A DNA stretch of 26,084 nucleotides from Candidatus Pacearchaeota archaeon. Its GTDB lineage: Archaea; Nanobdellota; Nanobdellia; Pacearchaeales; GW2011-AR1. Below the pieces are notes generated by a model. The model did not search any database, was not told the origin of the DNA, and was given only the letters and a program-made list of their open reading frames with translations. The position numbers were made by a program, and so were the translations under genes. The stretch's first letter is position 1. Every line of letters starts with the position of its first letter. Shown in pieces: positions 341-25,786 of this stretch. The stretch is taken from NCBI GenBank assembly GCA_023144035.1, contig JAGLGM010000008.1, positions 1 through 26,084 of the forward strand. Reading direction: 5' to 3'.

Positions 341-3300
341 TTATGTTGTATAAGTTATCCTTGCTCCATCAATTAAATCATTTTGTCCTATAGTTGTTAA
401 AAGACTATAAGAATATAAAGAATTATCTACCGTTCCAGAAGTAATTGTAGTATCTTCTGTATCATGAATTGCAGTCGCTAATGTTATTGCAGTAGCTCCA
501 TCTGAAAGACTTGACCTTCTTAAAAACCAAGTATTACCTGTATCTGAACCAAATACAACAGTACCTGTAATAACAGCACCATTAGGTAATTCTACTGGAC
601 AAGAAAAAGCTTGAGGTTCTGTAGAATCATTAATTCTAGCTGAATCATCTGAAGAAAATTCTATAGTATTATCTCGAGGATTAAAAGCTATTCCCGGAGT
701 AGACCAATAACTTGTTATTCCAGAACAAGCAGTTACTAAACCATCTTTAATTACTAAATCTTTATTATAATTACAAGTTCCTGTCATTCCTAAAGTTCCA
801 TCACCTGAACGATAATTTGTTCCTCTTATTGTTCCTGTAACATCTAATTCATAAGAAGGAGTATCATCTCCAATACCTACATTTCCATTATTAATATAAA
901 AAACTTCTCCAGTGCTATCCCTCATTCTAATTCCTGCTCTATCACTATTAAGAAATAAATCACTATGAGATTCAGAACCAAATCCAACATATCCTAATCT
1001 AGTGGGAGTTGCTCCATAATAAAATGAAAGAATTGGATTTGCTGTTGTTTCTGTGGTTTCTGTATCTGTAAGAGAAAGCATATTTCCTCCACCAGCAGAA
1101 GAAAGAGATAAAAGAGCATTAGGACTTGCAGTTCCAATACCTACATTTCCAGTATTTCTTTCCAAAGTCATTGTGCTATACCAATCATCACTATTATCTT
1201 GTCTATCAAAATGTAAATTTTTGTTAGTTGCATCTAATCTAATCATATGAGCTAAAGTCGTATCTGTTGACCTAGCTAGTTTTATTGCTCCTGATTGACC
1301 TGGAGTATCTGAACCTGCAAGACTAATATCCAATTTAGCATCTGGACTACTTGTTCCAATACCTACATTTCCTGAAGAATCAATTCTCATACCTTCAGCT
1401 GCTGCACCATATTTAAAAATTAATTCATTAGTTGCATCAGAATGTATACCTGCTCTTTCTCCACCACCTACTGTTTCTCTAAAAGTATATCCACCTGCTA
1501 CCCTTCCAATTCCAATATCTCCATCTACTTCTAATTCTGTTCCTGGGCTTGTTGTTCCAATACCTACATATCCAGAAGTATCTAAAAATAACTGAACACC
1601 AAAACCAGTTTTAGCTCTTATATCTAAATCATTATAACCACTTCCATCAAAACCAAGAATACTCATAGAACCTGCTGCTGAATTTTGTATTCTTATTCCA
1701 TCTGCTTTATTTGCACTAAAAAAGTTAGCTGTTGTTCCTCCTACAACTTCTAATTGAGCACCTGGTGTTACAGAATTTATTCCTATATATTTATTAGCAC
1801 CATCTATAAAAAAAGCTGTGTCTGTAGTTAAACCATCATTTCCTTCTGAGATATAAAAATCTCCTCCTGTATAATCAACTCCCATTTCAAAATGTCTTCT
1901 TGCATCAACATAAAACCTTTGAACTGCATCTCCTGTTCCTGCTTGATAAACTAATAATTGAGCATCAGTTGCAGTATCATCTCTTGCTATTTCTAATTCT
2001 GCACCAGGACTATCAGTTCCAATACCAACATCTCCTTCAACTATTAAATTATTTGCTCCGGGGTCTGTAGCATAGTAAGTTCCCCCTAATGCTAAACCTC
2101 CAGAACTATGTAATCTCATTTCATCAGAACTATTAACTCCAAATCTAATAGCTGTATTTTCTGAATTATAAATAACTGCATTTTCAGAAGCATCAATTCC
2201 GACAAGAAATCCATCATTTGTAGTGCTTCCTGTTGTAGTATTTGAAAACATAATACCAGAAGAATCAGAACTATCTTCATGAATATGTAAATTTAATTGA
2301 GGTGTTGTAATTCCAATTCCCCATTTATCTACTGAAGCATCATAATATAATCCTGTTCCACCAGAAGTTCTACCTAAATGTAAATCTGCTAATGCAGCAC
2401 CACTTTCATCATAATTATAAATATTAAAAACATCACTTCCATCTTGAAAAAATGTTGCTCTAAATGTTGAATCTCCAAATATTTTTAATCCTACAGAAGC
2501 AGAATTAGGGTCTATTATTTGAGTTCCAATTAAATGTAATCTTTCACTTGGACTATCAGTTCCAATACCTACATATCCACCTAAAGGATTTAGAACTAAA
2601 GGATATGAAGCTCCTGTTGCTGCTTCATTTCTTGATTGTATCCAAGCGTAAGTACCTGTGTTTTGACCAAAGTTTAAAATTGCTGATGTAGCACTATTAC
2701 CTAAACTAAGAGCTCCATTTGGTAATGCACTTAAAGAAGCAATTACTTCATTACCTGTTGATTCAATGCTTGTTTTAACTATTGGACTTGTTGTTCCAAT
2801 ACCTACAAAACCATCACTTGCTCTTGCAAAAATTGAAGTTAAAGAATTTCCTCTTATAAAAGTATCTACATCTGCTTGGGCTTGATTTAAAATAATATTT
2901 CCTCCAGTAACTACATTAAATCTTAAATCAGTTGAACTTGCACCTATTGTTGCAACATCTGTTCCTGCTCTATCTAAAGTCCAATGTGTTCCTGTATCAC
3001 TTCTTTTAGTTTCTAAAGGAGAAGCTGGACTATCAGTTCCAATACCTACATTTCCAGCAGAAGTTATTTGAAAAGGAGCATTTGTATGGTCTGCACTAAA
3101 ACCTAATGCTATATTATCTGCATCATTCATTCCAAAATAAACAATATCATTATTATTTTGAATTTGCAAACCTGAGTTTCCTGAGTTTCTATATATTCTT
3201 AATCCTGTTCCATCTGTTGTTTCAATATCTAAAGCTACATCAGGACTTGTAGTTCCAATACCTACATTTCCATCATGTTTAAAAGTTATTATATCCCTAA

Positions 3301-14241: not shown

Positions 14242-14862
14242 TTAATTTATTATTTTAACACCAGATTTAAATCCTTGAAATAAACTTGGTTTTGATTTTC
14301 CTTTAATAGAAAATGCTGTAGCTGCTAATGCAATAGCATTTACAATATCGTCATGAGTTCTAGCTTCATGAGAGATTTTTGGTAATCGTTCTGGATTATC
14401 TTTATGATATTCAGCTGTAATAGATAAGAATTGAAAATACATTTTTTTATCAATAGCTCGTTTTGTATCTTGATATCGTGGTATATGTAATCTCCCTTCA
14501 TCTCTTGTCATTAATATTTTTAAATTATTAAACATTTCTACTTTAATTTTTTGAGTATACCAAATTCCTTCTATTTTGGGTCCTATTTTTTTCTTTAATA
14601 CATCTGTAACTCCAGCCCCAAGTCCAGTAGTATCTACTATAATTTTTTTAAAGTTAAATATTTTATCTAAAAATTCTGCTCTGTCAATTACTTCTGTTAA
14701 ATCAGGAGTATGTTTAGCTTCCATATATACTACAAATATATCATCTTGAAATGGTAATTGTTCTAAAATTACAAATGCTGTTTCATCTTTTCCAGTTCTT
14801 GCAACGTCAATTCCTAAAATGTATATTGATTTTTGATTATATTCTGCTGTTGGAGTTATCAT
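14242..14862 (-). CDS. terL: Terminase large subunit, nuclease (RNase H-like) domain as a separate ORF (206 aa)
   Basis: IYILGIDVARTGKDETAFVIL, VDTTGLGAGVTD and RTHDDIVNAIALA match the acidic catalytic motifs of TerL nuclease domains. The SD-like GAGGT lies 7 nt before the ATG. The ORF starts at the codon right after the TAA of the ATPase ORF. Confidence 0.8.
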   Translation of the reverse strand: MITPTAEYNQKSIYILGIDVARTGKDETAFVILEQLPFQDDIFVVYMEAKHTPDLTEVIDRAEFLDKIFNFKKIIVDTTGLGAGVTDVLKKKIGPKIEGIWYTQKIKVEMFNNLKILMTRDEGRLHIPRYQDTKRAIDKKMYFQFLSITAEYHKDNPERLPKISHEARTHDDIVNAIALAATAFSIKGKSKPSLFQGFKSGVKIIN

Positions 14863-15639
14863 TTATAATACCTCAAATAAATTATAATTTAATTCAGATT
14901 TTTCTAATATATGTGGAGGAAAAAATCCCATAGCATCTGCAACAAATTCACTTTCATATTCACATCGAAATTGAACATCTGTTAATTCTGCCTTTTCATC
15001 ATCTATAAATTTTTGAGTATATTGTCCAACTTTTACTGCGTCTCTCCATGTTACATTTATTACTTCATAATTCGTATCTTCATAACAACTTCTATAAAAA
15101 TGATTTCTTCTTAGTGGAGTTCCAATTTTAATAACTTGTCCTTTATCGCCTTTACTAGCTAAATATGGTATAAGTACAGAACCCACAACTTCATCTTCCA
15201 TATCTCCTGCTTCTTCAATTATTAAAATATCACAAGTATGTCCTCTTTTAGTTCTTCCTCCATGTGCGCAAGTTATACTTAATATTACACTCCTATTATT
15301 AAATATTAATTCTGATTGTGTATCCTTTTTTAATAAAGCTTGAATGTCTGGATTTTCACTTATCAATTCTCTGATTTTACTATACATTAAATTACTTTGG
15401 TCTTGAATAGGTGCTGCTATTATTATAGTTGTTTTTTCTAAAATAGCCATTAGTAAAATATAAATCGCAACCGCTTGACTTTTTCCTGATTGTCTTGACC
15501 ATTTACCAACTATCTTTCGATAGTTTAAACATTTCATTAAGAATTTTGTTTGATAGAAATATAATTTATAATTAAATAGAAAATCAACAGTATCAAATAA
15601 TAAGTCTTCGTCGTTTTTAAGTTCTTCAATTGTGAACAT
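14863..15639 (-). CDS. terL: Terminase large subunit, ATPase domain as a separate ORF (258 aa)
   Basis: Walker A is GKWSRQSGKSQAV and Walker B is CDILIIEEAG. The size matches a TerL N-terminal domain. The ORF ends in TAA at 14863-14865, directly followed in frame by the ATG of the nuclease ORF. Confidence 0.8.
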   Translation of the reverse strand: MFTIEELKNDEDLLFDTVDFLFNYKLYFYQTKFLMKCLNYRKIVGKWSRQSGKSQAVAIYILLMAILEKTTIIIAAPIQDQSNLMYSKIRELISENPDIQALLKKDTQSELIFNNRSVILSITCAHGGRTKRGHTCDILIIEEAGDMEDEVVGSVLIPYLASKGDKGQVIKIGTPLRRNHFYRSCYEDTNYEVINVTWRDAVKVGQYTQKFIDDEKAELTDVQFRCEYESEFVADAMGFFPPHILEKSELNYNLFEVL

Positions 15640-16496: not shown

Positions 16497-16777
16497 TATT
16501 TTTTACCTCCTTTTGATTCTTTTATATCTACTCCGTGTAAAATTTGATTTTCACCTACCTCTACTATAGATTTTAATTCACTTAATTTTTTATTAAACAT
16601 ACTAACTTCTGTTTTTAATTCTCTTATTTGTCTATTAACAACTATTTGAGCAGTATCAATAGCTAATTGTTTTTGAGGTAACAAAACTTCTTCCAAATAT
16701 TCTATATCTTCTTTATGAATAATTAAATTTTTTTCTGTCATTTGTTTTTCATAATTATTTAATTTTCTTTTTGTCAT
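16496..16777 (-). CDS. Hypothetical coiled-coil protein, 93 aa
   Basis: ORF in the operon with heptad-like Glu/Lys/Leu composition. Confidence 0.5.
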   Translation of the reverse strand: MTKRKLNNYEKQMTEKNLIIHKEDIEYLEEVLLPQKQLAIDTAQIVVNRQIRELKTEVSMFNKKLSELKSIVEVGENQILHGVDIKESKGGKK

Positions 16778-16952
16778 TATTTATTTTTACCTCCTTTTGA
16801 TTATAATCATATAAATCTATAAAAGATTGTAAATGAATTTGAACGAATTTAGATAAATCAAAAACTTTATTTGATTTTATAAATAAACATTGGTAATAAG
16901 GTAAACTTATTGAAATTACTTGATTTTTATTTTCTATTTTTTTACGTCCCAT
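16755..16952 (-). CDS. Small DNA-binding protein candidate (ribbon-helix-helix-like), 65 aa
   Basis: KNQVISISLPYYQCLFIK...DLSKFVQIHLQSFI fits the beta-strand / helix / helix pattern of RHH/CopG-type regulators. Motif-level only. Confidence 0.4.
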   Translation of the reverse strand: MGRKKIENKNQVISISLPYYQCLFIKSNKVFDLSKFVQIHLQSFIDLYDYNQKEVKINNDKKKIK

Positions 16953-17095
16953 TATTCATATATTAGTAATCCACTTTTAGTATTTTCATATTCATTTAAA
17001 ATATTTGGATAATGTACTCTCAACCATTCTTCAATATTTAAAAACATTCTTTCAGGACTTTGTAATTGATGTAAAATTTCTTTATTAGGTTTCAT
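16952..17095 (-). CDS. Small hypothetical protein, 47 aa
   Basis: Not in the track. Its ATG (complement of 17093-17095) overlaps the TGA of the upstream ORF (ATGA). Its TAA overlaps the ATG of the downstream ORF (TAATG). Translation: MKPNKEILHQLQSPERMFLNIEEWLRVHYPNILNEYENTKSGLLIYE. It exactly fills an otherwise empty gap. Confidence 0.5.
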   Translation of the reverse strand: MKPNKEILHQLQSPERMFLNIEEWLRVHYPNILNEYENTKSGLLIYE

Positions 17096-17358
17096 TGTAT
17101 ATATTTAGGATGTTTTTTATTTTTTTTAGATAAGATATCATTTTCTTCACATAAACGAAAATTAACTTCATTTTTTCTAAGTTGCTCTAATAATTCAAGT
17201 TCAATTTTAGCATATTCTAATATAGATAATTTATCACCTTCACTTTTAAAATTAGAAAATGTTCCATAATTTGGAATTCTAATTATTCCTGAAATATTAT
17301 GTTTATTAAAGAATTCATCTATTTCATCTAATATATTTTGTTTATCTTTCTTCTTCAC
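17092..17358 (-). CDS. Hypothetical protein, 88 aa
   Basis: ORF in the operon. No motif recognised. Confidence 0.5.
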   Translation of the reverse strand: MKKKDKQNILDEIDEFFNKHNISGIIRIPNYGTFSNFKSEGDKLSILEYAKIELELLEQLRKNEVNFRLCEENDILSKKNKKHPKYIQ

Positions 17359-17560
17359 TTATTTTATCCTGAGTTAATATATTTCCTTTTTCCTTGTCAC
17401 TCTTATTTGTTCCTTTTATTCTATTTACTTTTATACCTTTTTGTTCAAGTGCATCACAAATGCCAATTAAAATCCCTGAATCATCCATTGTAATTTCTAT
17501 TACATCCATTTCAACTAAATCATCTACTAAATCTGTAAATTTACATTTATATTTATTCAT
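17342..17560 (-). CDS. Hypothetical protein, 72 aa
   Basis: ORF overlapping both neighbours by a few codons. No motif recognised. Confidence 0.45.
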   Translation of the reverse strand: MNKYKCKFTDLVDDLVEMDVIEITMDDSGILIGICDALEQKGIKVNRIKGTNKSDKEKGNILTQDKISEEER

Positions 17561-19466
17561 TTTTCTTTATTAATAAATTTAATATGGTATCTTTTTCTAA
17601 ATCTTCCATTGATAAATTAATATCACATTCATCTGGATTATCAACTAATACTGCTCCAGCAGTTTCAAGTAAATCATTTAATGTTATTGCATTTTTATAA
17701 AAATTAAATAAATAATTTCTACTTTTTTCAGTAGTTTCTAAATTACCAGAAGTTATTGAATTACCTAAATATGATTCTGTAAAATAAAATCTACATTCAT
17801 TTGGTTCAGTTGTTACAAGTCCTAATACTTTTTGTCTTTGGTTTATTTTTGTTTTTGCGATTCCAATAACATTATTTGGATTAACCATATAATTTCTAGT
17901 AAATCTAGTTATTTGGTCTTCTGCTACTAACATTTTAAATGGGACTTCAATTTTTTCATTATAATTATAATAATTTAACATTACTATAAAAGATTCATTT
18001 TCTTGTTTCTTCATATAAAATAATTCTGAAGCACCTTTTGGTTTTGGAGCAGCAGTTAAATCTCCTGAAAATAAAACATTTCTTTCATCATCTCTATATC
18101 TTCCATCCCAACCTATTTTTCCTTGAGTTGCATTTATAATAGATAAATCTAAGTCAATAGTGTGGCTTCCTACGTCTTCCCAATGAATCCCAAATACCAT
18201 ATCTTTTGGAATTGTAATATAAGTTCCTGATGGTAAATTTCCTGTAAATTGTTTTTCTGTTGCTGGTAATGTATATTTAACATTTTCTGGAATGTATATT
18301 TTTTTACCATCTACATTTTGTTTCATATCTGAAATAATAGATTCGATAACTAATTTAAAAACATGTTTTGCTACTATTTTATTTTCAAAATTAAAATCTG
18401 TTGAATATGATTTACCATTTCTAATTTTATACATAATTGAATCTGCATCTTCTGTTCGAAATTTTAATGCATATGCTAATCTTATTTTTCTAAATATATT
18501 AACTTTTGAAAGTTCATTTGTTAATTTATGTATTGGTTCTTGTAATATACTTCCATCTTTAATTTTAGCAGTTATATTATTAAGATAATCTTCTGGCATT
18601 GGTTTATGAAATATATTTGCATATTTTCTAATTCTATTTATATAACTATTTAATTGAATATTAGTTTTAAATGCTAAAAATATTGGTTTAAATCTATAAA
18701 ATATTTTTGATAATTCTTCTAGTCCATATTTTCTTTTATATTTTGTAAATAATACATTGATATTTAAATTATTTTTTCCTTTAATATCTTCTATTAAATC
18801 TTTATTTTTTATTAAAAGAGTTTTACCTGTAGATTTATATACAATATACCTTAAAAATTCTATTGGAATTCTTGGTATAATATTTAGATAATCATATAAC
18901 ATTATTTTAACTTCTTTATTTTTAATATTTTCAATTTCTTCATTTGTAATTTCTAAAAAAGTTGCTAAATCTGTAACATCTATTATAGTTTCTTCTGCTA
19001 ATGCTATTCCTGAATTTAAAAGTTTTAATAATTTTTCTTTTAATTCTTCTTTTGTATATCCTTTAATAACTGTTAATTTTATTTTATCTAATTCTATTTC
19101 TGGAACATCTAATTGTTCGGTTGGAATATAAACAGAATCTTTATCATAAATTCCTAATCTTTGAAATCCATAAGTTGTAATATAATGAATTATTTGTTCA
19201 ACTACTAATTGTTCTATACTTGCATCTCTAACTTTTTGCCATGATTTGTGAAAAGAATTATTCATTTGCTCACCTGTTAATCCAACTTCTTTTTCTACTA
19301 AAGTTATTAAATTACTTAATTCAACTTGAGAATAATTATCAACAACTTCTTTAGAGAAAATAAATCCTTTTGGAATGGTTTCTTCCAATATTCTTCTAGG
19401 ATAATCTCTTGTAAGTTTTTGTAATTCTATTGGTACTGCTTTGAAAAGTTTGATTGTTGATTTCAT
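17553..19466 (-). CDS. Large hypothetical protein (637 aa): unknown ~420-aa N-terminal region plus a TerD-like C-terminal beta-sandwich domain
   Basis: First gene of the minus-strand operon. The C-terminal segment is VFGIHWEDVGSHTIDLDLSIINATQGKIGW...VLFSGDLTAAPKPKGASELF...FIVMLNYYN. By eye it aligns with the TerD pattern GLGWD...DLDASAFLL...H(T/S)GDNxTGEGxGDDE...IIFVVTIHD. Confidence 0.7.
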   Translation of the reverse strand: MKSTIKLFKAVPIELQKLTRDYPRRILEETIPKGFIFSKEVVDNYSQVELSNLITLVEKEVGLTGEQMNNSFHKSWQKVRDASIEQLVVEQIIHYITTYGFQRLGIYDKDSVYIPTEQLDVPEIELDKIKLTVIKGYTKEELKEKLLKLLNSGIALAEETIIDVTDLATFLEITNEEIENIKNKEVKIMLYDYLNIIPRIPIEFLRYIVYKSTGKTLLIKNKDLIEDIKGKNNLNINVLFTKYKRKYGLEELSKIFYRFKPIFLAFKTNIQLNSYINRIRKYANIFHKPMPEDYLNNITAKIKDGSILQEPIHKLTNELSKVNIFRKIRLAYALKFRTEDADSIMYKIRNGKSYSTDFNFENKIVAKHVFKLVIESIISDMKQNVDGKKIYIPENVKYTLPATEKQFTGNLPSGTYITIPKDMVFGIHWEDVGSHTIDLDLSIINATQGKIGWDGRYRDDERNVLFSGDLTAAPKPKGASELFYMKKQENESFIVMLNYYNYNEKIEVPFKMLVAEDQITRFTRNYMVNPNNVIGIAKTKINQRQKVLGLVTTEPNECRFYFTESYLGNSITSGNLETTEKSRNYLFNFYKNAITLNDLLETAGAVLVDNPDECDINLSMEDLEKDTILNLLIKKNE

Positions 19467-19499
19467 TTTTCTTTTTTTAATTAAGACGGGAGGTAAATA

Positions 19500-19525
19500 T
19501 AGAATGGGTATATATACCCATTCTA
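19500..19525. promoter_or_regulatory. Perfect 26-bp palindrome (candidate operator or RNA hairpin) in the divergent control region
   Basis: tagaatgggtata|tatacccattcta is perfectly self-complementary. It lies 34 nt upstream of the 637-aa gene start and contains the ATG of the SD-preceded small plus-strand ORF. Confidence 0.6.
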
Positions 19526-19635
19526 ACAGTTTTAATGTTAGTATTAGGAACCTCGTATGTCTTAAATATAATTGGCGAGGAGTAAATGGTTACATCAAAT
19601 TGTATTATATATTAGGAACTCCTTGTGCCTTATAA
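19504..19635 (+). CDS. Candidate small protein, 43 aa
   Basis: Internal start of the supplied 19441..19635 ORF. GGGAGGT at 19488-19494 lies 9 nt before the ATG at 19504. Translation: MGIYTHSNSFNVSIRNLVCLKYNWRGVNGYIKLYYILGTPCAL. The region is less AT-rich than other intergenic DNA. It could instead be non-coding regulatory sequence. Confidence 0.35.
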   Translation: MGIYTHSNSFNVSIRNLVCLKYNWRGVNGYIKLYYILGTPCAL

Positions 19636-19648
19636 TATAATTATTAAT

Positions 19649-19684
19649 TATAAGTTTATAAATATATTTATAATAGATTATATA
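19649..19684 (+). promoter_or_regulatory. Upstream module copy B (RNA-repair operon)
   Basis: 33 of 36 identical to 10571-10606. It is followed at 19736-19752 by AATAAAAAGATTTAAATA, matching AATAAAAAGTATTTAAAT at 10627-10646. That core ends 29 nt before the ATG at 19781, which has no SD. Confidence 0.6.
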
Positions 19685-19780
19685 TAATATAGTATATATG
19701 ATAGATTATAATAATATGTTTTCATTCTATAATGAATAAAAAGATTTAAATACTAATTTAAATTAAATATATTAAATAAG

Positions 19781-20878
19781 ATGGTAGAAGAAAAAATAGT
19801 AACTTTATTAAAAGAAGTGGAAAGAATTATGAGTCCTTATAATATATATGCTGTTGGTGGATGTGTAAGAGATTCACTTTTAGGAGTTGAACCAAAAGAT
19901 TATGATTTCTGTACAAATGCATCTCCAGATGAAATTGAAGAAAAAGTAAAAGCAGATGGTAAAAGAGCATATTTAACTGGTAAAAGATTTGGAACTATTG
20001 GATTTAAAATAGAATATGAAGGTAAATTTGAAATGATAGAAGTTACTACTTTTCGAACAGAAGAATATGAAAAAGGAAATCGAAAACCTGATGTTAAATT
20101 TGTAAAAAATATACAAATTGATTTAGGTAGACGTGATTTTACAATCAATGCAATGGCAATGAGATTAACAAATGATGGAAAATTAAGATTAATAGACCCC
20201 CATGATGGTGAAGAAGATTTATTAAAATGGAGATTAATTAGATGTGTTGGTAATCCTAAAATGAGATTTAAAGAAGACCCATTAAGAATGTTGAGAGCAA
20301 TTAGATTTAGTTGTAGATTTAATTATGAAATTGAACAAAAGACAATGGAAAAAATGATGAGTGGAGCAATACAAATTTTAAATATATCGAAGGAAAGATG
20401 GATGATGGAATTAGATAAAATATTACAATCAGAAAATGTAGAAAGAGGATTAATGGATTTATGGCAATCTAATTTATTTAAATTTATGATTCCTGAATTA
20501 GAACTAATGAGTGACTATGACCAAAATTCTCAATATCATCCTTGGAAATTAGATGTTCATACAATTAAAGTAGTTGAAGCTGTTAGAAAAGAAACAGATG
20601 ATTTGAATATGTTATGGGCTGGATTATTACACGATATTGCTAAACCGTTTATAAGAACAAATAAAACATTAAAAACTTCTGGAGAACAATTAAAACAAGG
20701 ACGAACATATAAATCAAACTACATTGGACATGAAATATTAGGAGCAGAAATGGTAAATAGAATTGCTACTCATTTAAATTGGTCTAAAGAAAGACATGAA
20801 AAAGTTGTTGAGTTAGTTAGAAATCACTTAGAAAATGATTGTCCTTTGAGAAAATTTGACCAGGAGGGTAAGAAATGA
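19781..20878 (+). CDS. cca: Class II tRNA nucleotidyltransferase (CCA-adding enzyme) with C-terminal HD phosphohydrolase domain (365 aa)
   Basis: Motifs GGCVRDSLLG...KDYDF, RRDFTINAMA and EDPLRMLRAIRF mark the PolyA_pol head and neck. WAGLLHDIAKP...GHE marks the HD domain. Confidence 0.85.
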   Translation: MVEEKIVTLLKEVERIMSPYNIYAVGGCVRDSLLGVEPKDYDFCTNASPDEIEEKVKADGKRAYLTGKRFGTIGFKIEYEGKFEMIEVTTFRTEEYEKGNRKPDVKFVKNIQIDLGRRDFTINAMAMRLTNDGKLRLIDPHDGEEDLLKWRLIRCVGNPKMRFKEDPLRMLRAIRFSCRFNYEIEQKTMEKMMSGAIQILNISKERWMMELDKILQSENVERGLMDLWQSNLFKFMIPELELMSDYDQNSQYHPWKLDVHTIKVVEAVRKETDDLNMLWAGLLHDIAKPFIRTNKTLKTSGEQLKQGRTYKSNYIGHEILGAEMVNRIATHLNWSKERHEKVVELVRNHLENDCPLRKFDQEGKK

Positions 20879-21264
20879 CAGACATAATAATTTACACAAC
20901 AAAAGAAGTTTTAGAACATAAAAAGAAAGATGGAATTGGAAAGAAAGGAGATTATTGTTACTGGACTTTTAAAAATAAACCTCAAAAATTAAAGAGGTTT
21001 GATAGAATTTATTTTGCTATTGATAAAAAAATTATTGGTTCTTTTAGAATACACGATATTTGTGGAAATAGACAAGGGTGTTCTCCACCACATTATTATA
21101 GTGAAGAAAAAAATAAGTCAATAAGTCAAGAAGAAAGTCTTGATAGTAGAAGTGATAATATTGAAATTCATTTCTTTAGTGAATCTTGGGAAAATATTAA
21201 ACCAATTCTGACAAAACCATTTCAAGGATTTAAATATGCTGATAAAGTTATAGAATTAAAATGA
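20875..21264 (+). CDS. Hypothetical protein, 129 aa (possible small PUA/ASCH-like beta-barrel)
   Basis: ATGA overlap with cca. The pattern RIYFAIDKKIIGSFRIHDI ... FQGFKYADK weakly recalls ASCH/PUA-like domains. This is a guess. Confidence 0.5.
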   Translation: MTDIIIYTTKEVLEHKKKDGIGKKGDYCYWTFKNKPQKLKRFDRIYFAIDKKIIGSFRIHDICGNRQGCSPPHYYSEEKNKSISQEESLDSRSDNIEIHFFSESWENIKPILTKPFQGFKYADKVIELK

Positions 21265-21268
21265 AAAA

Positions 21269-21664
21269 ATGACAGACGAAATAAAAATACCATACAAACA
21301 ATATGTAATAGTACCTAGAAAACCTAAAATGAGTAAAGGTAAAATCGCAAGTCAGGTGGCTCACGCTACATTCATGGCTTTGGAGAATCAAAAAAATATA
21401 CCTTTAAGAGCTGGCAATTTACCATCTGGATATTTAATTGAAGAATGGAAAAATAAAGGAATGTGTGTTATTGTTTTACAATGTAAAGATGAACAAGCAT
21501 TAAATAACATGGCCAAATATTTAGAACAATGGAATATTTCACATCACCTTTATATTGATGAAGGATTATATGGATGTAAACTATTTACAGCAACTGCTCT
21601 TGCTACAGGAGTATTAACAGAAGAACAATATTGGATGTTTGATAATATGAGGTTGTTTAAATGA
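21269..21664 (+). CDS. Peptidyl-tRNA hydrolase, PTH2 (archaeal/eukaryotic) type (131 aa)
   Basis: KMSKGKIASQVAHATFMAL matches the hallmark PTH2 motif (M)GKGK(L/I)AAQ(V/C)(A/S)HAA. It is followed by W...G..(V)IVL(Q)..DE..L and a C-terminal TA.A.G segment, as in PTH2. Size is typical. Confidence 0.75.
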   Translation: MTDEIKIPYKQYVIVPRKPKMSKGKIASQVAHATFMALENQKNIPLRAGNLPSGYLIEEWKNKGMCVIVLQCKDEQALNNMAKYLEQWNISHHLYIDEGLYGCKLFTATALATGVLTEEQYWMFDNMRLFK

Positions 21665-21939
21665 CATTTAATATATTTAAAAATAAAAAAGAAAAATATA
21701 ATCCAATTTTTAAAATTGGAGACCACGTGGTTTTAATAAAAAATGAAGAATATGCTTATAGTAATCCAATGTATATTTATGAAGTCACTAAGGTTAATAT
21801 TGAAACTATATATGTCCACGGAATTCTTGTTAATATTAATTATATTAATATAAAAAATTGTTGTGGTGGTGGAGAACATTGTGGATTAGATGCTGATAAA
21901 TTTAGATTAATAAGAAGAAAGAAGTGTTATAAAAAATAA
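21661..21939 (+). CDS. Hypothetical protein, 92 aa
   Basis: ATGA overlap with the PTH2 gene. Contains NCCGGGEHCG. No family recognised. Confidence 0.5.
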   Translation: MTFNIFKNKKEKYNPIFKIGDHVVLIKNEEYAYSNPMYIYEVTKVNIETIYVHGILVNINYINIKNCCGGGEHCGLDADKFRLIRRKKCYKK

Positions 21940-21940
21940 A

Positions 21941-23137
21941 ATGAAACAAATATATTACAATAAAGAACAACAGAAAATACCAATTAAGAGTTGGGTAACT
22001 GATATAGAAAGTGGAGCATTAGACCAAGCTAAAAATTTATCTAAAATACCATTCGCATTTAAGCATATAGCATTAATGCCAGATGCTCATCAAGGATTCG
22101 GAATGCCTATTGGAGGAGTAATGGCTACTAAGAATGTTGTAATCCCGAACGCGGTCGGGGTAGATATCGGTTGTGGAATGTGTTCTGTTAAAACATCTAT
22201 AAAAGTTGAAGATTTTGATATTGATACTCTTAAAAAAATAATGGGAGAAATAAGAAAAACTATTCCTGTTGGTTTTAGTCATAGGCAAACTTCATGTGAA
22301 GATAAAGAAATGCCATTAGGAGCTAAACCAATTTATATGAAAATAGTTTCTGAAGAATGGGCATCTGCAAGTAATCAATTAGGAACTCTTGGTGGAGGAA
22401 ATCATTTCATTGAAATGCAAAAAGGAGATGACGGATTTATTTGGATTATGATTCATAGTGGAAGTAGAAATTTAGGACATAAAGTAGCAAGTCATTATAA
22501 TAATATTGCTAAAGAATTAAATAAGAAATGGGCTTCAAGTATTCCTCCTTCTTATGATTTAGCATTCTTACCTTTAGATAGTAATGAAGGAAAAGCATAT
22601 TTAGAAGAAATGGATTATTGTGTTGAATTTGCTTTAGCTAATAGACAAAAAATGATGGACGATATTCAAAATATTATTTATAGTATTATGTTTGATGATA
22701 AAAAAATAGATGTAGAATATCAACCAATGATTAATATAGCTCATAATTATGCAGTAATGGAAAATCATTTTGGAGAAAATGTAATGGTTCATAGAAAAGG
22801 TGCAACAAAAGCTACTAAAGGATTAAAAGGAATTATTCCAGGTAGTCAAGGAACTTGTAGTTACATAGTTGAAGGATTAGGTAATAAAGAAAGTTTTCAA
22901 TCATGTAGTCATGGAGCTGGAAGAAAAATGGGAAGAAAAGATGCTCAAAGAAGATTAAATTTAGAAGAGGAAAAAACTAAATTAGAAGAAAAAGGAATTA
23001 TCCATTCAATTAGAAATGTAAAAGATTTAGATGAAGCATCTGGAGCATATAAAGATATTGACCAAGTCATGGTCAATCAAAATGACCTAGTTAAAATTTT
23101 AGTTAAATTAGAGCCGTTGGGGGTTATTAAGGGATGA
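21941..23137 (+). CDS. rtcB: RtcB RNA 3'-phosphate/2',3'-cyclic phosphate ligase (398 aa)
   Basis: Essentially all signature motifs are present: PDAHQGFGMPIGGV, GVDIGCGM, GGGNHFIE, HSGSRNLGH, AHNY, HRKGAT, PGSQG and SCSHGAGR (the guanylylated His region). Confidence 0.95.
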   Translation: MKQIYYNKEQQKIPIKSWVTDIESGALDQAKNLSKIPFAFKHIALMPDAHQGFGMPIGGVMATKNVVIPNAVGVDIGCGMCSVKTSIKVEDFDIDTLKKIMGEIRKTIPVGFSHRQTSCEDKEMPLGAKPIYMKIVSEEWASASNQLGTLGGGNHFIEMQKGDDGFIWIMIHSGSRNLGHKVASHYNNIAKELNKKWASSIPPSYDLAFLPLDSNEGKAYLEEMDYCVEFALANRQKMMDDIQNIIYSIMFDDKKIDVEYQPMINIAHNYAVMENHFGENVMVHRKGATKATKGLKGIIPGSQGTCSYIVEGLGNKESFQSCSHGAGRKMGRKDAQRRLNLEEEKTKLEEKGIIHSIRNVKDLDEASGAYKDIDQVMVNQNDLVKILVKLEPLGVIKG

Positions 23138-23559
23138 TGGAAAAAATAAATATATTAATAAAAAAAGGAATAGTCAAAAGAAAACCTGGTTATTTATATT
23201 ATATAAATAGAGAAGGAGATTTATATGCAGTAGAAGCAAAAAAAGGACGAGAAAAAGGAGATGAAAAAAATAAATCATGTATAAGAAAGAATAAAATAAT
23301 TAGAAATTTAGAAGAAGAAAAAGAAGATTTAAAATTAAAATATAAACTTAAAAAGAAAAAACAAATTAGAAATTTAAAAGAAGAAAAACAATTTTTTAAA
23401 TTAAAATGTAAACTTAAAAAGAAAAAACAACTTGAACAAATTAAAGAAGATATAGATAATAAACTTAATGGATTAGAATTCGATAGAAGTAAATTTATGA
23501 AAAATTGGTGGAAAGAAAATAAAAATAAAAATGAAATCAAAAATTCTAAAATTAATTAA
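23134..23559 (+). CDS. Lys-rich repeat protein, 141 aa
   Basis: ATGA overlap with rtcB. The N-terminal segment is GIVKRKPGYLYYINREGDLYAV. Two 22-aa repeats follow (IRNLEEEKEDLKLKYKLKKKKQ / IRNLKEEKQFFKLKCKLKKKKQ). Low-complexity sequence, so coding status is less certain than for its neighbours. Confidence 0.5.
   Translation: MMEKINILIKKGIVKRKPGYLYYINREGDLYAVEAKKGREKGDEKNKSCIRKNKIIRNLEEEKEDLKLKYKLKKKKQIRNLKEEKQFFKLKCKLKKKKQLEQIKEDIDNKLNGLEFDRSKFMKNWWKENKNKNEIKNSKIN
23298..23429 (+). repeat. 66-bp tandem duplication (2 units) inside the Lys-rich ORF
   Basis: Units 23298-23363 and 23364-23429 both start aattagaaattta and end taaacttaaaaagaaaaaaca. They are about 90 percent identical by eye and stay in frame (22 aa). 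Confidence 0.85.
23526..23558 (+). repeat. 33-bp direct repeat, copy 1 (spans the stop of the 141-aa ORF and the start of the 71-aa ORF)
   Basis: taaaaatgaaatcaaaaattctaaaattaattaaa versus 23704-23736 taaaaatgaaatcaaaaattctaaaactaataaaa, with 2 mismatches. Confidence 0.9.
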
Positions 23560-23746
23560 AGAAGTACCAGAATTAAAATCAAATCGATGGTATGAAATTC
23601 CATTACATATCATTCATGAATGTTGTGTTTGTGGTAATGAACATGAAGTAAAATTTAAAATAAAAAATAATACATTATACACAAAATGGAAAGGAATTAA
23701 TACTAAAAATGAAATCAAAAATTCTAAAACTAATAAAAAAGATTGA
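23531..23746 (+). CDS. Small Cys/His-containing protein, 71 aa
   Basis: Starts MKSKILKLIK, identical to the start of the next gene because of the 33-bp direct repeat. Contains HECCVCGNEHE. Overlaps both neighbours. Confidence 0.45.
   Translation: MKSKILKLIKEVPELKSNRWYEIPLHIIHECCVCGNEHEVKFKIKNNTLYTKWKGINTKNEIKNSKTNKKD
23704..23736 (+). repeat. 33-bp direct repeat, copy 2 (spans the end of the 71-aa ORF and the start of the nucleotidyltransferase ORF)
   Basis: See copy 1. The offset is 178 bp. Confidence 0.9.
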
Positions 23747-24467
23747 AGAAGAAAAAGATATAAAAGTAATTTTCGCAGTAGAATCTGGAAGTAGGAGTTG
23801 GAACTTTGCATCTAAAGATTCAGATTATGATGTTCGATGTGTTCATGTATCTAAAGTTAAGAAATATCTTAGTCTTGTTAATCCTCCAGAACAAATTGAA
23901 AGTTTAAATGATGTAGAAAATATAGATTTAGTATCATGGGATATAAGAAAGTTTCTAAAATTATTATTTAATTCGAATCCGACTTGTAGTGAATGGTTAA
24001 ATTCATCCATTATTTATATTGATAGTTTTTATAGAACTCAATTAAAAGAAATATTTGAAAAAGGATTTTCTAAATATGCTTTAAAGAAACATTATATTTC
24101 TATGGCAAGACAAAATTATGAAAAATATATTAGAAATAAAAATCCATGTTCACTTAAAAAATATGTTTATGTATTAAGAAGTCTTGCTTGTGTAGAATGG
24201 TTAATTTATAAAAAAGAAATTCCTCCAATAAAATATAATGATGTTATGAAAATTCTTCCAGAAAAATTAAGAAAGTTTTTTGAAGAGTCAGTTAAGTTGA
24301 AGAAATCTGGTGAGGATACTAAAGGTTCACAAAATGAGCCAGTAAATCGGTTAATTGAAAAATATTTTGATATTGAATTTGAAAAAGATGAAGATGATTT
24401 TAATATTGAGATTTTGCATCGAGTTCTTCGAACTGTAATTACATTGCAAGGAAGTGAAATAAAATGA
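23709..24467 (+). CDS. Pol-beta-superfamily nucleotidyltransferase, RlaP-like (PF10127-type) (252 aa)
   Basis: FAVESGSRSWNFASKDSDYDVRCVH matches the GS-x(9-10)-SDxDxR nucleotidyltransferase signature of the family I remember as RlaP (RNA repair pathway Pol-beta family), which is often linked to RtcB. Confidence 0.7.
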   Translation: MKSKILKLIKKIEEEKDIKVIFAVESGSRSWNFASKDSDYDVRCVHVSKVKKYLSLVNPPEQIESLNDVENIDLVSWDIRKFLKLLFNSNPTCSEWLNSSIIYIDSFYRTQLKEIFEKGFSKYALKKHYISMARQNYEKYIRNKNPCSLKKYVYVLRSLACVEWLIYKKEIPPIKYNDVMKILPEKLRKFFEESVKLKKSGEDTKGSQNEPVNRLIEKYFDIEFEKDEDDFNIEILHRVLRTVITLQGSEIK

Positions 24468-24871
24468 AAAAATTAATACGAATAAAATCTAAATCAAAAG
24501 GAAAAAAACTATCGAGAAAAAAATACAGAACAGATATAGAAGAAATAATGGAAAAAGGATTAATAAGTATTGGTTTAACTGGTTATATTTTTGATACTGG
24601 AATTAGAAGTAAATATGGATATCGTCCTGATTTTATGTGGCCAGATATTAAATTCGGAATTGAATGTGATGGTGAACATTGGCATAAACGAACTAAAAAA
24701 CAATTTGAACATGATAGGAAAAAAAATGGATATTTTAAAAGTAAAGAATGGATGATATTACATTTTTCAGGAACAGAAATTAAAACTGATATTCATACTT
24801 GTATAAACAAGATTAAAATAGAAATAAGAAGGAGGAAAAAGAAATATGGAAACAATAAAAGTAAAGATTGA
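24464..24871 (+). CDS. PD-(D/E)xK endonuclease-fold protein, DUF559/Vsr-like (135 aa)
   Basis: YRPDFMWPDIKFGIECDGEHWH fits the D...E.D/ExK core of DUF559-type endonuclease domains. Both termini are basic. ATGA overlap with the upstream gene. Confidence 0.6.
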   Translation: MKKLIRIKSKSKGKKLSRKKYRTDIEEIMEKGLISIGLTGYIFDTGIRSKYGYRPDFMWPDIKFGIECDGEHWHKRTKKQFEHDRKKNGYFKSKEWMILHFSGTEIKTDIHTCINKIKIEIRRRKKKYGNNKSKD

Positions 24872-25373
24872 AGGAACTGCACCATTACTTATGCATAGAT
24901 TTGCAGAAGAAGAAGCTTCTATGAAAAGTGCAAGAACTAAAAGAGTTTATATAGCAGAAGATGAAGCTGAAAAAGCTGCATATAGAAACACTGCTGGTAA
25001 ATTATGTTTACCAACAAGACATTTTAAAGCTTCTATGACTAAAGCTGGAGTAGAACTTATTTTTAAAGGAAGAAAAACATATAAAGATTATATCAAATCT
25101 GGTATTATTTTTAAAGAAGTAGAAACTGTTTTAGACCAACAAAAATATGTAATAGATTCTGTTCCAGCAGTTATTAATCGAGCAAGAATAATGAGACATA
25201 GACCAAGATTTGATAAATGGTCTTGTGAATTTGAATTTGATATAATTGATGAAGCATTAGATGTTACTAATGTTAAACAAATACTTGAGTCAGCTGGAAA
25301 GTATAAAGGTGTTGGAGATAATCGACCTGAATTCGGAAGATTTAAAGTAACAGAATTTAAGAAAATTAAATAA
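24846..25373 (+). CDS. Hypothetical protein with RAMP-like (Cas7/Csm3-like) motifs, 175 aa
   Basis: Strong SD AGGAGGA 9 nt upstream of the ATG. IKVKIEGTAPLLMHRF is a beta-strand plus xPLhhH motif. GKLCLPTRHFKASMTKAG resembles the RAMP motif P(Y/I)IPGSS(L/I)KGALR. The C-terminal GKYKGVGDNRPEFGRFKV resembles the RAMP glycine-rich loop. The CDS call is firm; the family call is tentative. Confidence 0.8.
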   Translation: METIKVKIEGTAPLLMHRFAEEEASMKSARTKRVYIAEDEAEKAAYRNTAGKLCLPTRHFKASMTKAGVELIFKGRKTYKDYIKSGIIFKEVETVLDQQKYVIDSVPAVINRARIMRHRPRFDKWSCEFEFDIIDEALDVTNVKQILESAGKYKGVGDNRPEFGRFKVTEFKKIK

Positions 25374-25382
25374 CTTAATTAT

Positions 25383-25786
25383 TATATTCAATATTGTTAT
25401 GTTGGGTTTTAGTGAGTTGAGTTAAGGTACGTTAAGTTAGGATAAGTTTTGTTGAGTTAAGGTAGGGATTTAATTATCCCTATCATTTTTTATATTCAAC
25501 TAAGTTGCGTTTAGTTAGGTTATGATGAGTTATGATGAGTTTTTGTTTGATTCGTTGAGTTAAGTTGAGTTTTGTTATGGTAAGGAATCATACTTATATT
25601 CACTTGAGTTATGGATTGTTCAGTTAGGTTATGAATTGATAGGTTACGGTATGATGTGTTACGTTTTGTTCAGTTGGGATAAGTTAAGGTAAGGAATTAT
25701 ATTCATATTCAACTTTGTTGTTATCAGGTTAGTTAAGTTACGTTAAGTTGTAGTTGGTTGTGTTAAGGTATGGTAAATTAAAAAAC
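25383..25786 (+). repeat. Non-coding, C-depleted, G+T-rich array of four ~105-bp degenerate tandem units
   Basis: TATATTCA anchors sit at 25383, 25491, 25595 and 25698 (spacing 108/104/103). GGTAAGGAAT occurs at 25579 and 25688, with the variant GGTAGGGATT at 25461. My hand count for 25381-25780 is about 96 G versus 23 C. Stops occur in every frame. Confidence 0.85.
25463..25491 (+). terminator. Weak hairpin + T-run terminator candidate downstream of the plus-strand operon
   Basis: tagggat (25463-25469) / atcccta (25476-25482) form a 7-bp stem with a 6-nt loop, followed by tcatttttt. The stem is short with only 3 G-C pairs. It lies inside unit 1 of the repeat array. Confidence 0.4.

Follow-up and report, generated by a model that had tools for sequence, protein, structure and literature searches.

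Near the end of the 26,084-nucleotide stretch of DNA analysed here (the window), a small gene with RAMP-like motifs closes a same-strand run that encodes a CCA enzyme, PTH2, RtcB and RlaP, and a four-unit repeat array follows it. Does its product serve the RNA-repair operon, or does it work with the array? The best explanation as a whole, to which we give a probability of roughly 85%, is that the gene encodes a VIPR effector carried by a tailed archaeal virus of roughly 89 kb. VIPR, described in 2026, couples a virus-borne RAMP with guide RNAs of alternating GGY/NN motifs and recognises double-stranded DNA with each third base skipped (bioRxiv 10.64898/2026.04.26.720920). The two genes of the locus are:

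24464..24871, plus strand, putative vap accessory gene, 135 aa with a DUF559/Vsr-like PD-(D/E)xK nuclease fold
24846..25373, plus strand, vipr gene, 175-aa RAMP with a single RRM plus thumb and G-loop

The open reading frame at 24846-25373 proved as well supported as the first-pass annotation had described it, with AGGAGGA at 24830-24836, spaced 9 nt from the vipr ATG, and with a 175-aa product that holds the three RAMP-like motifs in the order first noted. We have found 68 homologues of the protein at E≤1e-3, and the AlphaFold model built on them reached a pLDDT of 92. Comparison of this model with known structures, a check that the first-pass annotation had itself proposed, gave a RAMP core. 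The best matches were RAMPs throughout (Cmr, Csm3 and Cas7, with a top Z of 12.0, rmsd 3.5 and 150 aligned), and Foldseek matched Csm3 with an E of 1e-6. A Vipr structure was in neither match list, the Foldseek library being older than the Vipr structure.

The family profile matched SUSP1 Vipr (PDB 36pp chain D) over its full length, with an E of 1.4e-21 and profile positions 3-168 aligned; SUSP1 Vipr aside, the same search gave no significant entry. Along the alignment, H17, R119, D158 and R160 pair with SUSP1 H17, R138, D177 and R179, which are guide-binding residues (bioRxiv 10.64898/2026.04.26.720927). The SUSP1 residue W178, seen by cryo-EM to stack on the second repeat base, a G (same reference), is replaced by N159. 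Searches of Pfam, NCBIfam and PADLOC with the protein returned no meaningful family, and PHROGs returned only the unannotated phrog_4652. Identity to the Cas RAMPs was 5-20%, and the loop after strand 1 has no invariant Asp, judged from alignments alone. From profile and residue correspondence, the product is almost certainly a member of the Vipr family. It is Vipr, a minimal viral RAMP relative, rather than Cas7 or Csm3 proper: the RAMP fold first read in the motifs has held, its assignment to Cas7/Csm3 has not, and the idea of a minimal viral RAMP derivative agrees with both fold and family match. The absence of other cas genes was likewise confirmed, cas1 being missing from the 91%-complete assembly, and neither the neighbouring genes nor PADLOC revealed a CRISPR array or cas operon near vipr. 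The locus has the features by which a VIPR is recognised, namely a Vipr homologue with RRM, thumb and G-loop, a vipr plus vap locus, flanking pentamers and one-base-skip targets; Vipr membership, the four-unit GTT/NN array, the conserved nuclease-like partner and the skip-1 matches between guides and DNA were all computed here.

The place of vipr at the end of the CCA enzyme/PTH2/RtcB/RlaP run had suggested a link to tRNA and RNA repair, the product being a Csm3-like RNase or an RNA-binding helper of that operon. Csm3 and Cmr subunits being the top structural matches would fit this reading, as would the pairing of SUSP1 VIPR with single-stranded RNA in vitro. We have therefore looked at the neighbourhoods of 124 other Vipr loci, 62 of which have at least 2.5 kb of upstream sequence. 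RtcB, RlaP, CCA enzyme or PTH2 were found near 0 of the 124, and on this count the linkage was rejected. In a related rtcB-rlaP operon the module is absent, no vipr being called after rlaP. Since the repair genes are missing from those loci, Vap is conserved and the related operon lacks the module, we conclude that vap, vipr and the array form a cassette appended to the repair operon. The direct Vipr homology, set against the low identity to Cas RAMPs, and the lack of an invariant Asp after strand 1 speak against an RNA-repair helper as well, and we regard it as highly improbable. Transcripts of the array are most likely bound by Vipr, as had been proposed, but as guides and not as substrates, because the family targets double-stranded DNA and two of the guides match the DNA of an integrated element (see below).

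The array on which the VIPR reading depends consists of the following units:

25383..25484, plus strand, guide unit 1, TATATTCA leader, 14 pentamers (25396-25465) and a 3' hairpin at 25461-25484
25491..25588, plus strand, guide unit 2, leader and 16 pentamers (25504-25583)
25595..25697, plus strand, guide unit 3, leader and 18 pentamers (25603-25692)
25704..25781, plus strand, guide unit 4, leader and 12 pentamers (25717-25776)

All four units (25383-25781) keep one pentamer register, with 12-18 pentamers per unit. The TATATTCA leader, which may be a promoter or a processing signal, stands ahead of 4/4 units, yet this motif is common throughout the AT-rich window, and a clear 3' hairpin follows unit 1 only. 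The lag-5 autocorrelation of the array was 0.51, against 0.32±0.02 in 2000 shuffles (maximum 0.40), which reveals a 5-nt periodicity that Tandem Repeats Finder, run on the window, missed almost wholly. Over 60 pentamers, base 1 was G in 55 and base 3 was T in 58, base 2 was T39/G12/A9, and bases 4 and 5 were variable. The canonical GGY/NN form does not hold, with G at repeat base 2 in 12/60 units; the array is a GTT/NN variant of VIPR guides with a consensus related to the canonical one. The survey for arrays suggested in the first-pass annotation found five-base tracts adjoining 111 of the 124 other Vipr loci, a few of these calls being weak. No further G-N-Y guide array was found elsewhere in the assembly.

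Elsewhere in the family, two distant Vipr loci (L006:3568-4578 and L009:2026-6564) have very large canonical arrays, with about 200 GGT/NN units near the gene and tracts of about 50 unbroken units. Other loci (L021-L088, L103-L124) show TGT, AGT, AGC, ATT, GCT, GAC or GTC per NN. Non-canonical VIPR repeats are already known: Yoon et al., in the parts available, describe the fixed-trinucleotide variants NNNGG, YNNNG and NNNNG beside Vipr-like proteins, and the accessible text of another study gives GAC/NN, CAC/NN, WGT/NN and TGH/NN (bioRxiv 10.64898/2026.10.21.760802). The main text of these papers, figures and supplements apart, neither names GTT/NN nor links a repeat base to a protein residue. 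The system described here is a GTT/NN variant with predicted natural targets.

The archaeal-virus copy combines N159 with GTT repeats. We have compared 86 homologues of less than 90% identity. A G-rich base 2 accompanied an aromatic residue 159 in 64/67 cases and a non-aromatic one in 1/19, and column 159 ranked first of 168 by mutual information with base 2. Two of the three aromatic exceptions lack R119, which also contacts base 2, while L068 is a genuine departure from the rule, keeping GGT despite Asn159. The GTT repeats could instead reflect AT-rich drift, independent of residue 159, in an assembly of about 27% GC. However, the median gene GC is nearly equal at aromatic-159/R119 loci and at the rest (0.35 vs 0.37), whereas the median G2 fraction is 0.77 vs 0.05. 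G2 was lost in 9/10 non-aromatic sequence clusters, and the missing R119 in two of the three aromatic exceptions also argues against drift. What drift retains in its favour is the small number of well-supported independent contrasts, and we find it quite unlikely. On the tree, which left out L001, L014, L015, L087, L090, L097, L099, L118 and 13 loci with no array call, 2 independent pairs stood on well-supported branches, or 8 when every branch is counted, and such numbers do not suffice for significance. Co-evolution of residue 159 and repeat base 2 is thus strongly suggested by the covariation but unproven, because kin share their states and supported independent pairs are few; phylogenetic independence is weakly shown. 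A weaker trend was seen for base 1, with a median G1 of 0.81 with H17 and D158, 0.46 with N17 and D158, and 0.33 where D158 is missing; column 17 came fourth, and the majority of supported pairs were alike.

We have then asked what the guides match. Each guide was rewritten as a series of NN pairs separated by skips of 0-3 bases, and the assembly was scanned with these patterns, the guide ends being chosen by eye and the last, conserved unit dropped. Outlier matches appeared at skip 1 only, with nothing comparable at skips 0, 2 and 3. Guide 2 matched 29/30 bases (null maximum 24 in 1000 shuffles) and guide 1 matched 24/26, with two mismatches (null maximum 23 in 1000 shuffles). The sites, in the assembly G000, are:

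C9 from 17133, minus strand, guide 1 target, 45-aa DUF7557/RHH-like gene
C9 from 17002, minus strand, guide 2 target, start of the next, 79-aa gene
C9 about 16735-24940, target element of 8.2 kb with 15-nt direct repeats at both ends

The guide 1 and guide 2 sites lie 131 nt apart on the sense strand, in codon register, with the wobble position skipped. The 8.2-kb element encodes a tyrosine integrase, an AAA_25 helicase and a superinfection-exclusion protein, sits in the chromosome between scpA and ribosomal genes, and is absent from the corresponding site of a same-genus genome. No structural genes were recognised in it, nor a G-N-Y solo guide array. The virus and the element were found in the same samples. 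These data point to an integrated mobile element in the chromosome of the probable host and a rival of the virus; by analogy with known VIPR targets it may be a competitor or a satellite. Its integration site is the end of a non-coding stretch of ~240 nt upstream of scpA (L132:8510-8765, G000 C9 about 16510-16765), which is about 80% conserved across four genomes of the same genus, has no Rfam match and is possibly an unannotated archaeal RNA gene.

Guide 3 found an imperfect match closer to home:

24408..24457, plus strand, 3' end of the virus's own rlaP, just upstream of vap, imperfect guide 3 match (26/34)

The match to the virus's own rlaP end covers 26/34 bases (P 0.018). Scored as codons, guide 3 reached 71 against a null maximum of 57, and therefore clearly derives from an rlaP homologue. 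Its internal mismatches to the virus's own rlaP fall 6/6 at codon position 1, three being synonymous and three Ile/Val swaps. Neither an exact target in IMG/VR nor one with up to 3 mismatches in 301 related genomes was found, and a search of RlaP homologues did not find the source; four other homologues, of 66-73% identity, differ more in the tail. From the codon pattern, guide 3 appears to be directed at the rlaP end, immediately ahead of vap-vipr, in a close sibling virus. Since no match was found beyond the virus's own rlaP end, which directly precedes vap, and since the four other homologues differ more there, guide 3 might instead be self-regulatory, or a decayed self-targeting guide, and tune the expression of vap-vipr in the virus itself. 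This we consider unlikely: the own-site match (76%) falls short of the 80% cut-off applied to natural targets, guides against relatives' VIPR loci are already known, and IMG/VR and the 301 genomes gave no exact target. For guide 4, no target emerged from the assembly scan, the codon reading or an exact IMG/VR search. A strain variant (L146) differs from the window at a single base in 1462, at 24454, and this base falls within the guide 3 footprint, for which the chance is about 3-4%.

The first-pass annotation had called the vipr product a solo protein. This was mistaken, because an upstream nuclease-like ORF, vap, overlaps the start of vipr with its 3' end and pairs with it. Vap matched Pfam DUF559 with an E of 3e-5. 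A homologue is present at 77 of the 124 other Vipr loci, including 74/80 of the close metagenomic ones, and E26, D56, E67, D69, H74 and D84 are invariant across 49 homologues. Co-folding of Vap with Vipr gave a score of 0.32, the best control reaching 0.01, with at least 76% of contacts in agreement between runs and a partner pLDDT of at least 59. In calibration the mark was reached by 58/80 solved and 2/110 mismatched pairs; among scores of 0.60 or less it was reached by 7/80 solved pairs and by both mismatched ones. Thus, the models lend weak support to a direct contact between Vap and Vipr.

These features are compatible with a VIPR whose main effect is target destruction, the recruited Vsr-like partner cutting the DNA, beyond blocking transcription. 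Such a reading would be an add-on to the best explanation, as both can hold. The catalytic-type residues of Vap are invariant, its linkage to vipr is near-universal in the clade, and co-folding weakly supports the contact. Yoon et al., in the parts available, report nucleases only in the host-defence VIPR types III and V, and suggest target destruction by the nuclease-bearing types. On the other side, the co-binned chromosome still carries the targeted element in intact form, and a cut there would sever the host's own chromosome; we place target destruction somewhat short of even odds.

The closest relative (79%; L016:912-1562, P0002) is a Vipr that has lost its G-loop; in place of the last ~70 residues stands a segment which is nuclease-like to the eye and similar to G000 C11:33685-33906. 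There vap is kept and the array absent, and the system is probably broken.

Which replicon carries the cassette? The window is part of contig C14 and encodes head, portal, terminase and tail-fibre proteins. In another assembly C14 and C11 are joined via an array of 21 tRNA genes, and C14 and the other end of C11 have a 60-bp repeat in common; this junction and the shared repeat suggest a circular virus of about 89 kb. The vap-vipr-array carrier would be a tailed virus, roughly 89 kb in size, of a small-genome archaeon. The co-binned genome, of 776 kb and 91% complete, has archaeal ribosomal protein S24e, and its small size would fit a DPANN-type host. The link between virus and host is a probable one, drawn from co-binning, from DNA segments that the two have in common and from what the guides match.

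Several further observations concern these genomes. The 21 tRNA genes lie immediately outside the window, on the other strand and beside the tRNA-repair operon (G000 C14:26156-27760 and C11:60359-60970; L014 11311-13711). The terminase large subunit is in two adjoining minus-strand ORFs, window 14242-14862 and 14863-15639, with its nuclease and ATPase parts. Tail-fibre-like gene segments (window 856-2572) have 85-94% DNA identity to parts of G000 C1:76906-80842, where the matching part of the host contig belongs to a 4430-aa ORF, suggestive of recent exchange or shared repeat domains. Two related archaeal genomes have Vipr homologues, one with two adjacent copies (G060 C62:2924-4292, L130/L131) and the other with one near housekeeping genes (G094 C1:78816, L129).

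In the mechanism that we propose, filament assembly, silencing and cutting are carried over from SUSP1 or from motifs. Vipr subunits would polymerise along the guide, one per pentamer, as in SUSP1. The three fixed bases of each pentamer would be held by the protein and its NN pair offered to double-stranded DNA, with each third target base, the codon wobble position, skipped. Guides 1 and 2 would shut down the element's small regulator operon, and a competitor or satellite would thereby be held back while the virus infects its host; guide 3 would act on a sibling virus, immediately ahead of the vap and vipr genes there. That the second repeat base is relaxed and mostly T would follow from the loss of the G-loop aromatic (N159). 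The least certain step is a nick or cut that the Vsr-like partner may make in the bound DNA.

The VIPR reading brings a GTT-repeat system, and the virus of a small-genome archaeon, under the one-base-skip code, and it offers a concrete predicted target element within the same assembly. The covariation of residue 159 with base 2 agrees with the cryo-EM contact and predicts that single swaps would alter scaffold specificity. This would give a reason for the repeat variants, possibly the avoidance of guide hijacking by rivals, and could make orthogonal programmable tools possible. A conserved nuclease-fold partner on a viral VIPR also makes silencing versus cutting directly testable. A bolder reading, tentative and on balance unlikely, is that a readable residue-to-base code, repeatedly switched, yields mutually orthogonal VIPRs, and that the archaeal-virus clade recruits a Vsr-like nuclease and cuts rivals. 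Within it, an aromatic or non-aromatic residue 159 may set repeat base 2, and His17/Asp158 may favour G at base 1.

Among the closest known systems, the CRISPR Cas7-group RAMPs (Csm3, Cmr4, Cmr6) resemble this protein in RRM core, thumb and G-loop (Z up to 12), but at 5-20% identity, and the locus differs from theirs in having no cas1, CRISPR array or cas operon and in its non-contiguous guide code. The action of SUSP1 VIPR against F5 satellites (bioRxiv 10.64898/2026.10.15.759431, whose text, as far as accessible, makes no mention of archaea) is another parallel, with viral guides that target an element with an integrase, inserted in the chromosome of the host, and others against relatives' VIPR loci. 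There a recombinase is hit, whereas the archaeal-virus guides match the gene of a small RHH-like regulator and the gene next to it, in an element where structural genes and a G-N-Y solo guide array were not found. Also among these systems are the VIPRs of SUSP1 and of a Pseudomonas fulva prophage (type II; 10.64898/2026.04.26.720920, 10.64898/2026.04.26.720927). In common are a homologous Vipr with H17, the thumb Arg and the G-loop Asp/Arg, a viral two-gene vap-vipr locus, pentamer guide units of about 100 nt, and the one-base skip in wobble register. A conserved pseudoknot tail was not found here, and TATATTCA opens each unit. The archaeal-virus system further differs in its GTT/NN rather than GGY/NN repeats, in the Asn that replaces W178/Y176, in its 12-18 repeats per unit, in its archaeal host and in its nuclease-fold partner, which stands in place of the DNA-binding Vap1.
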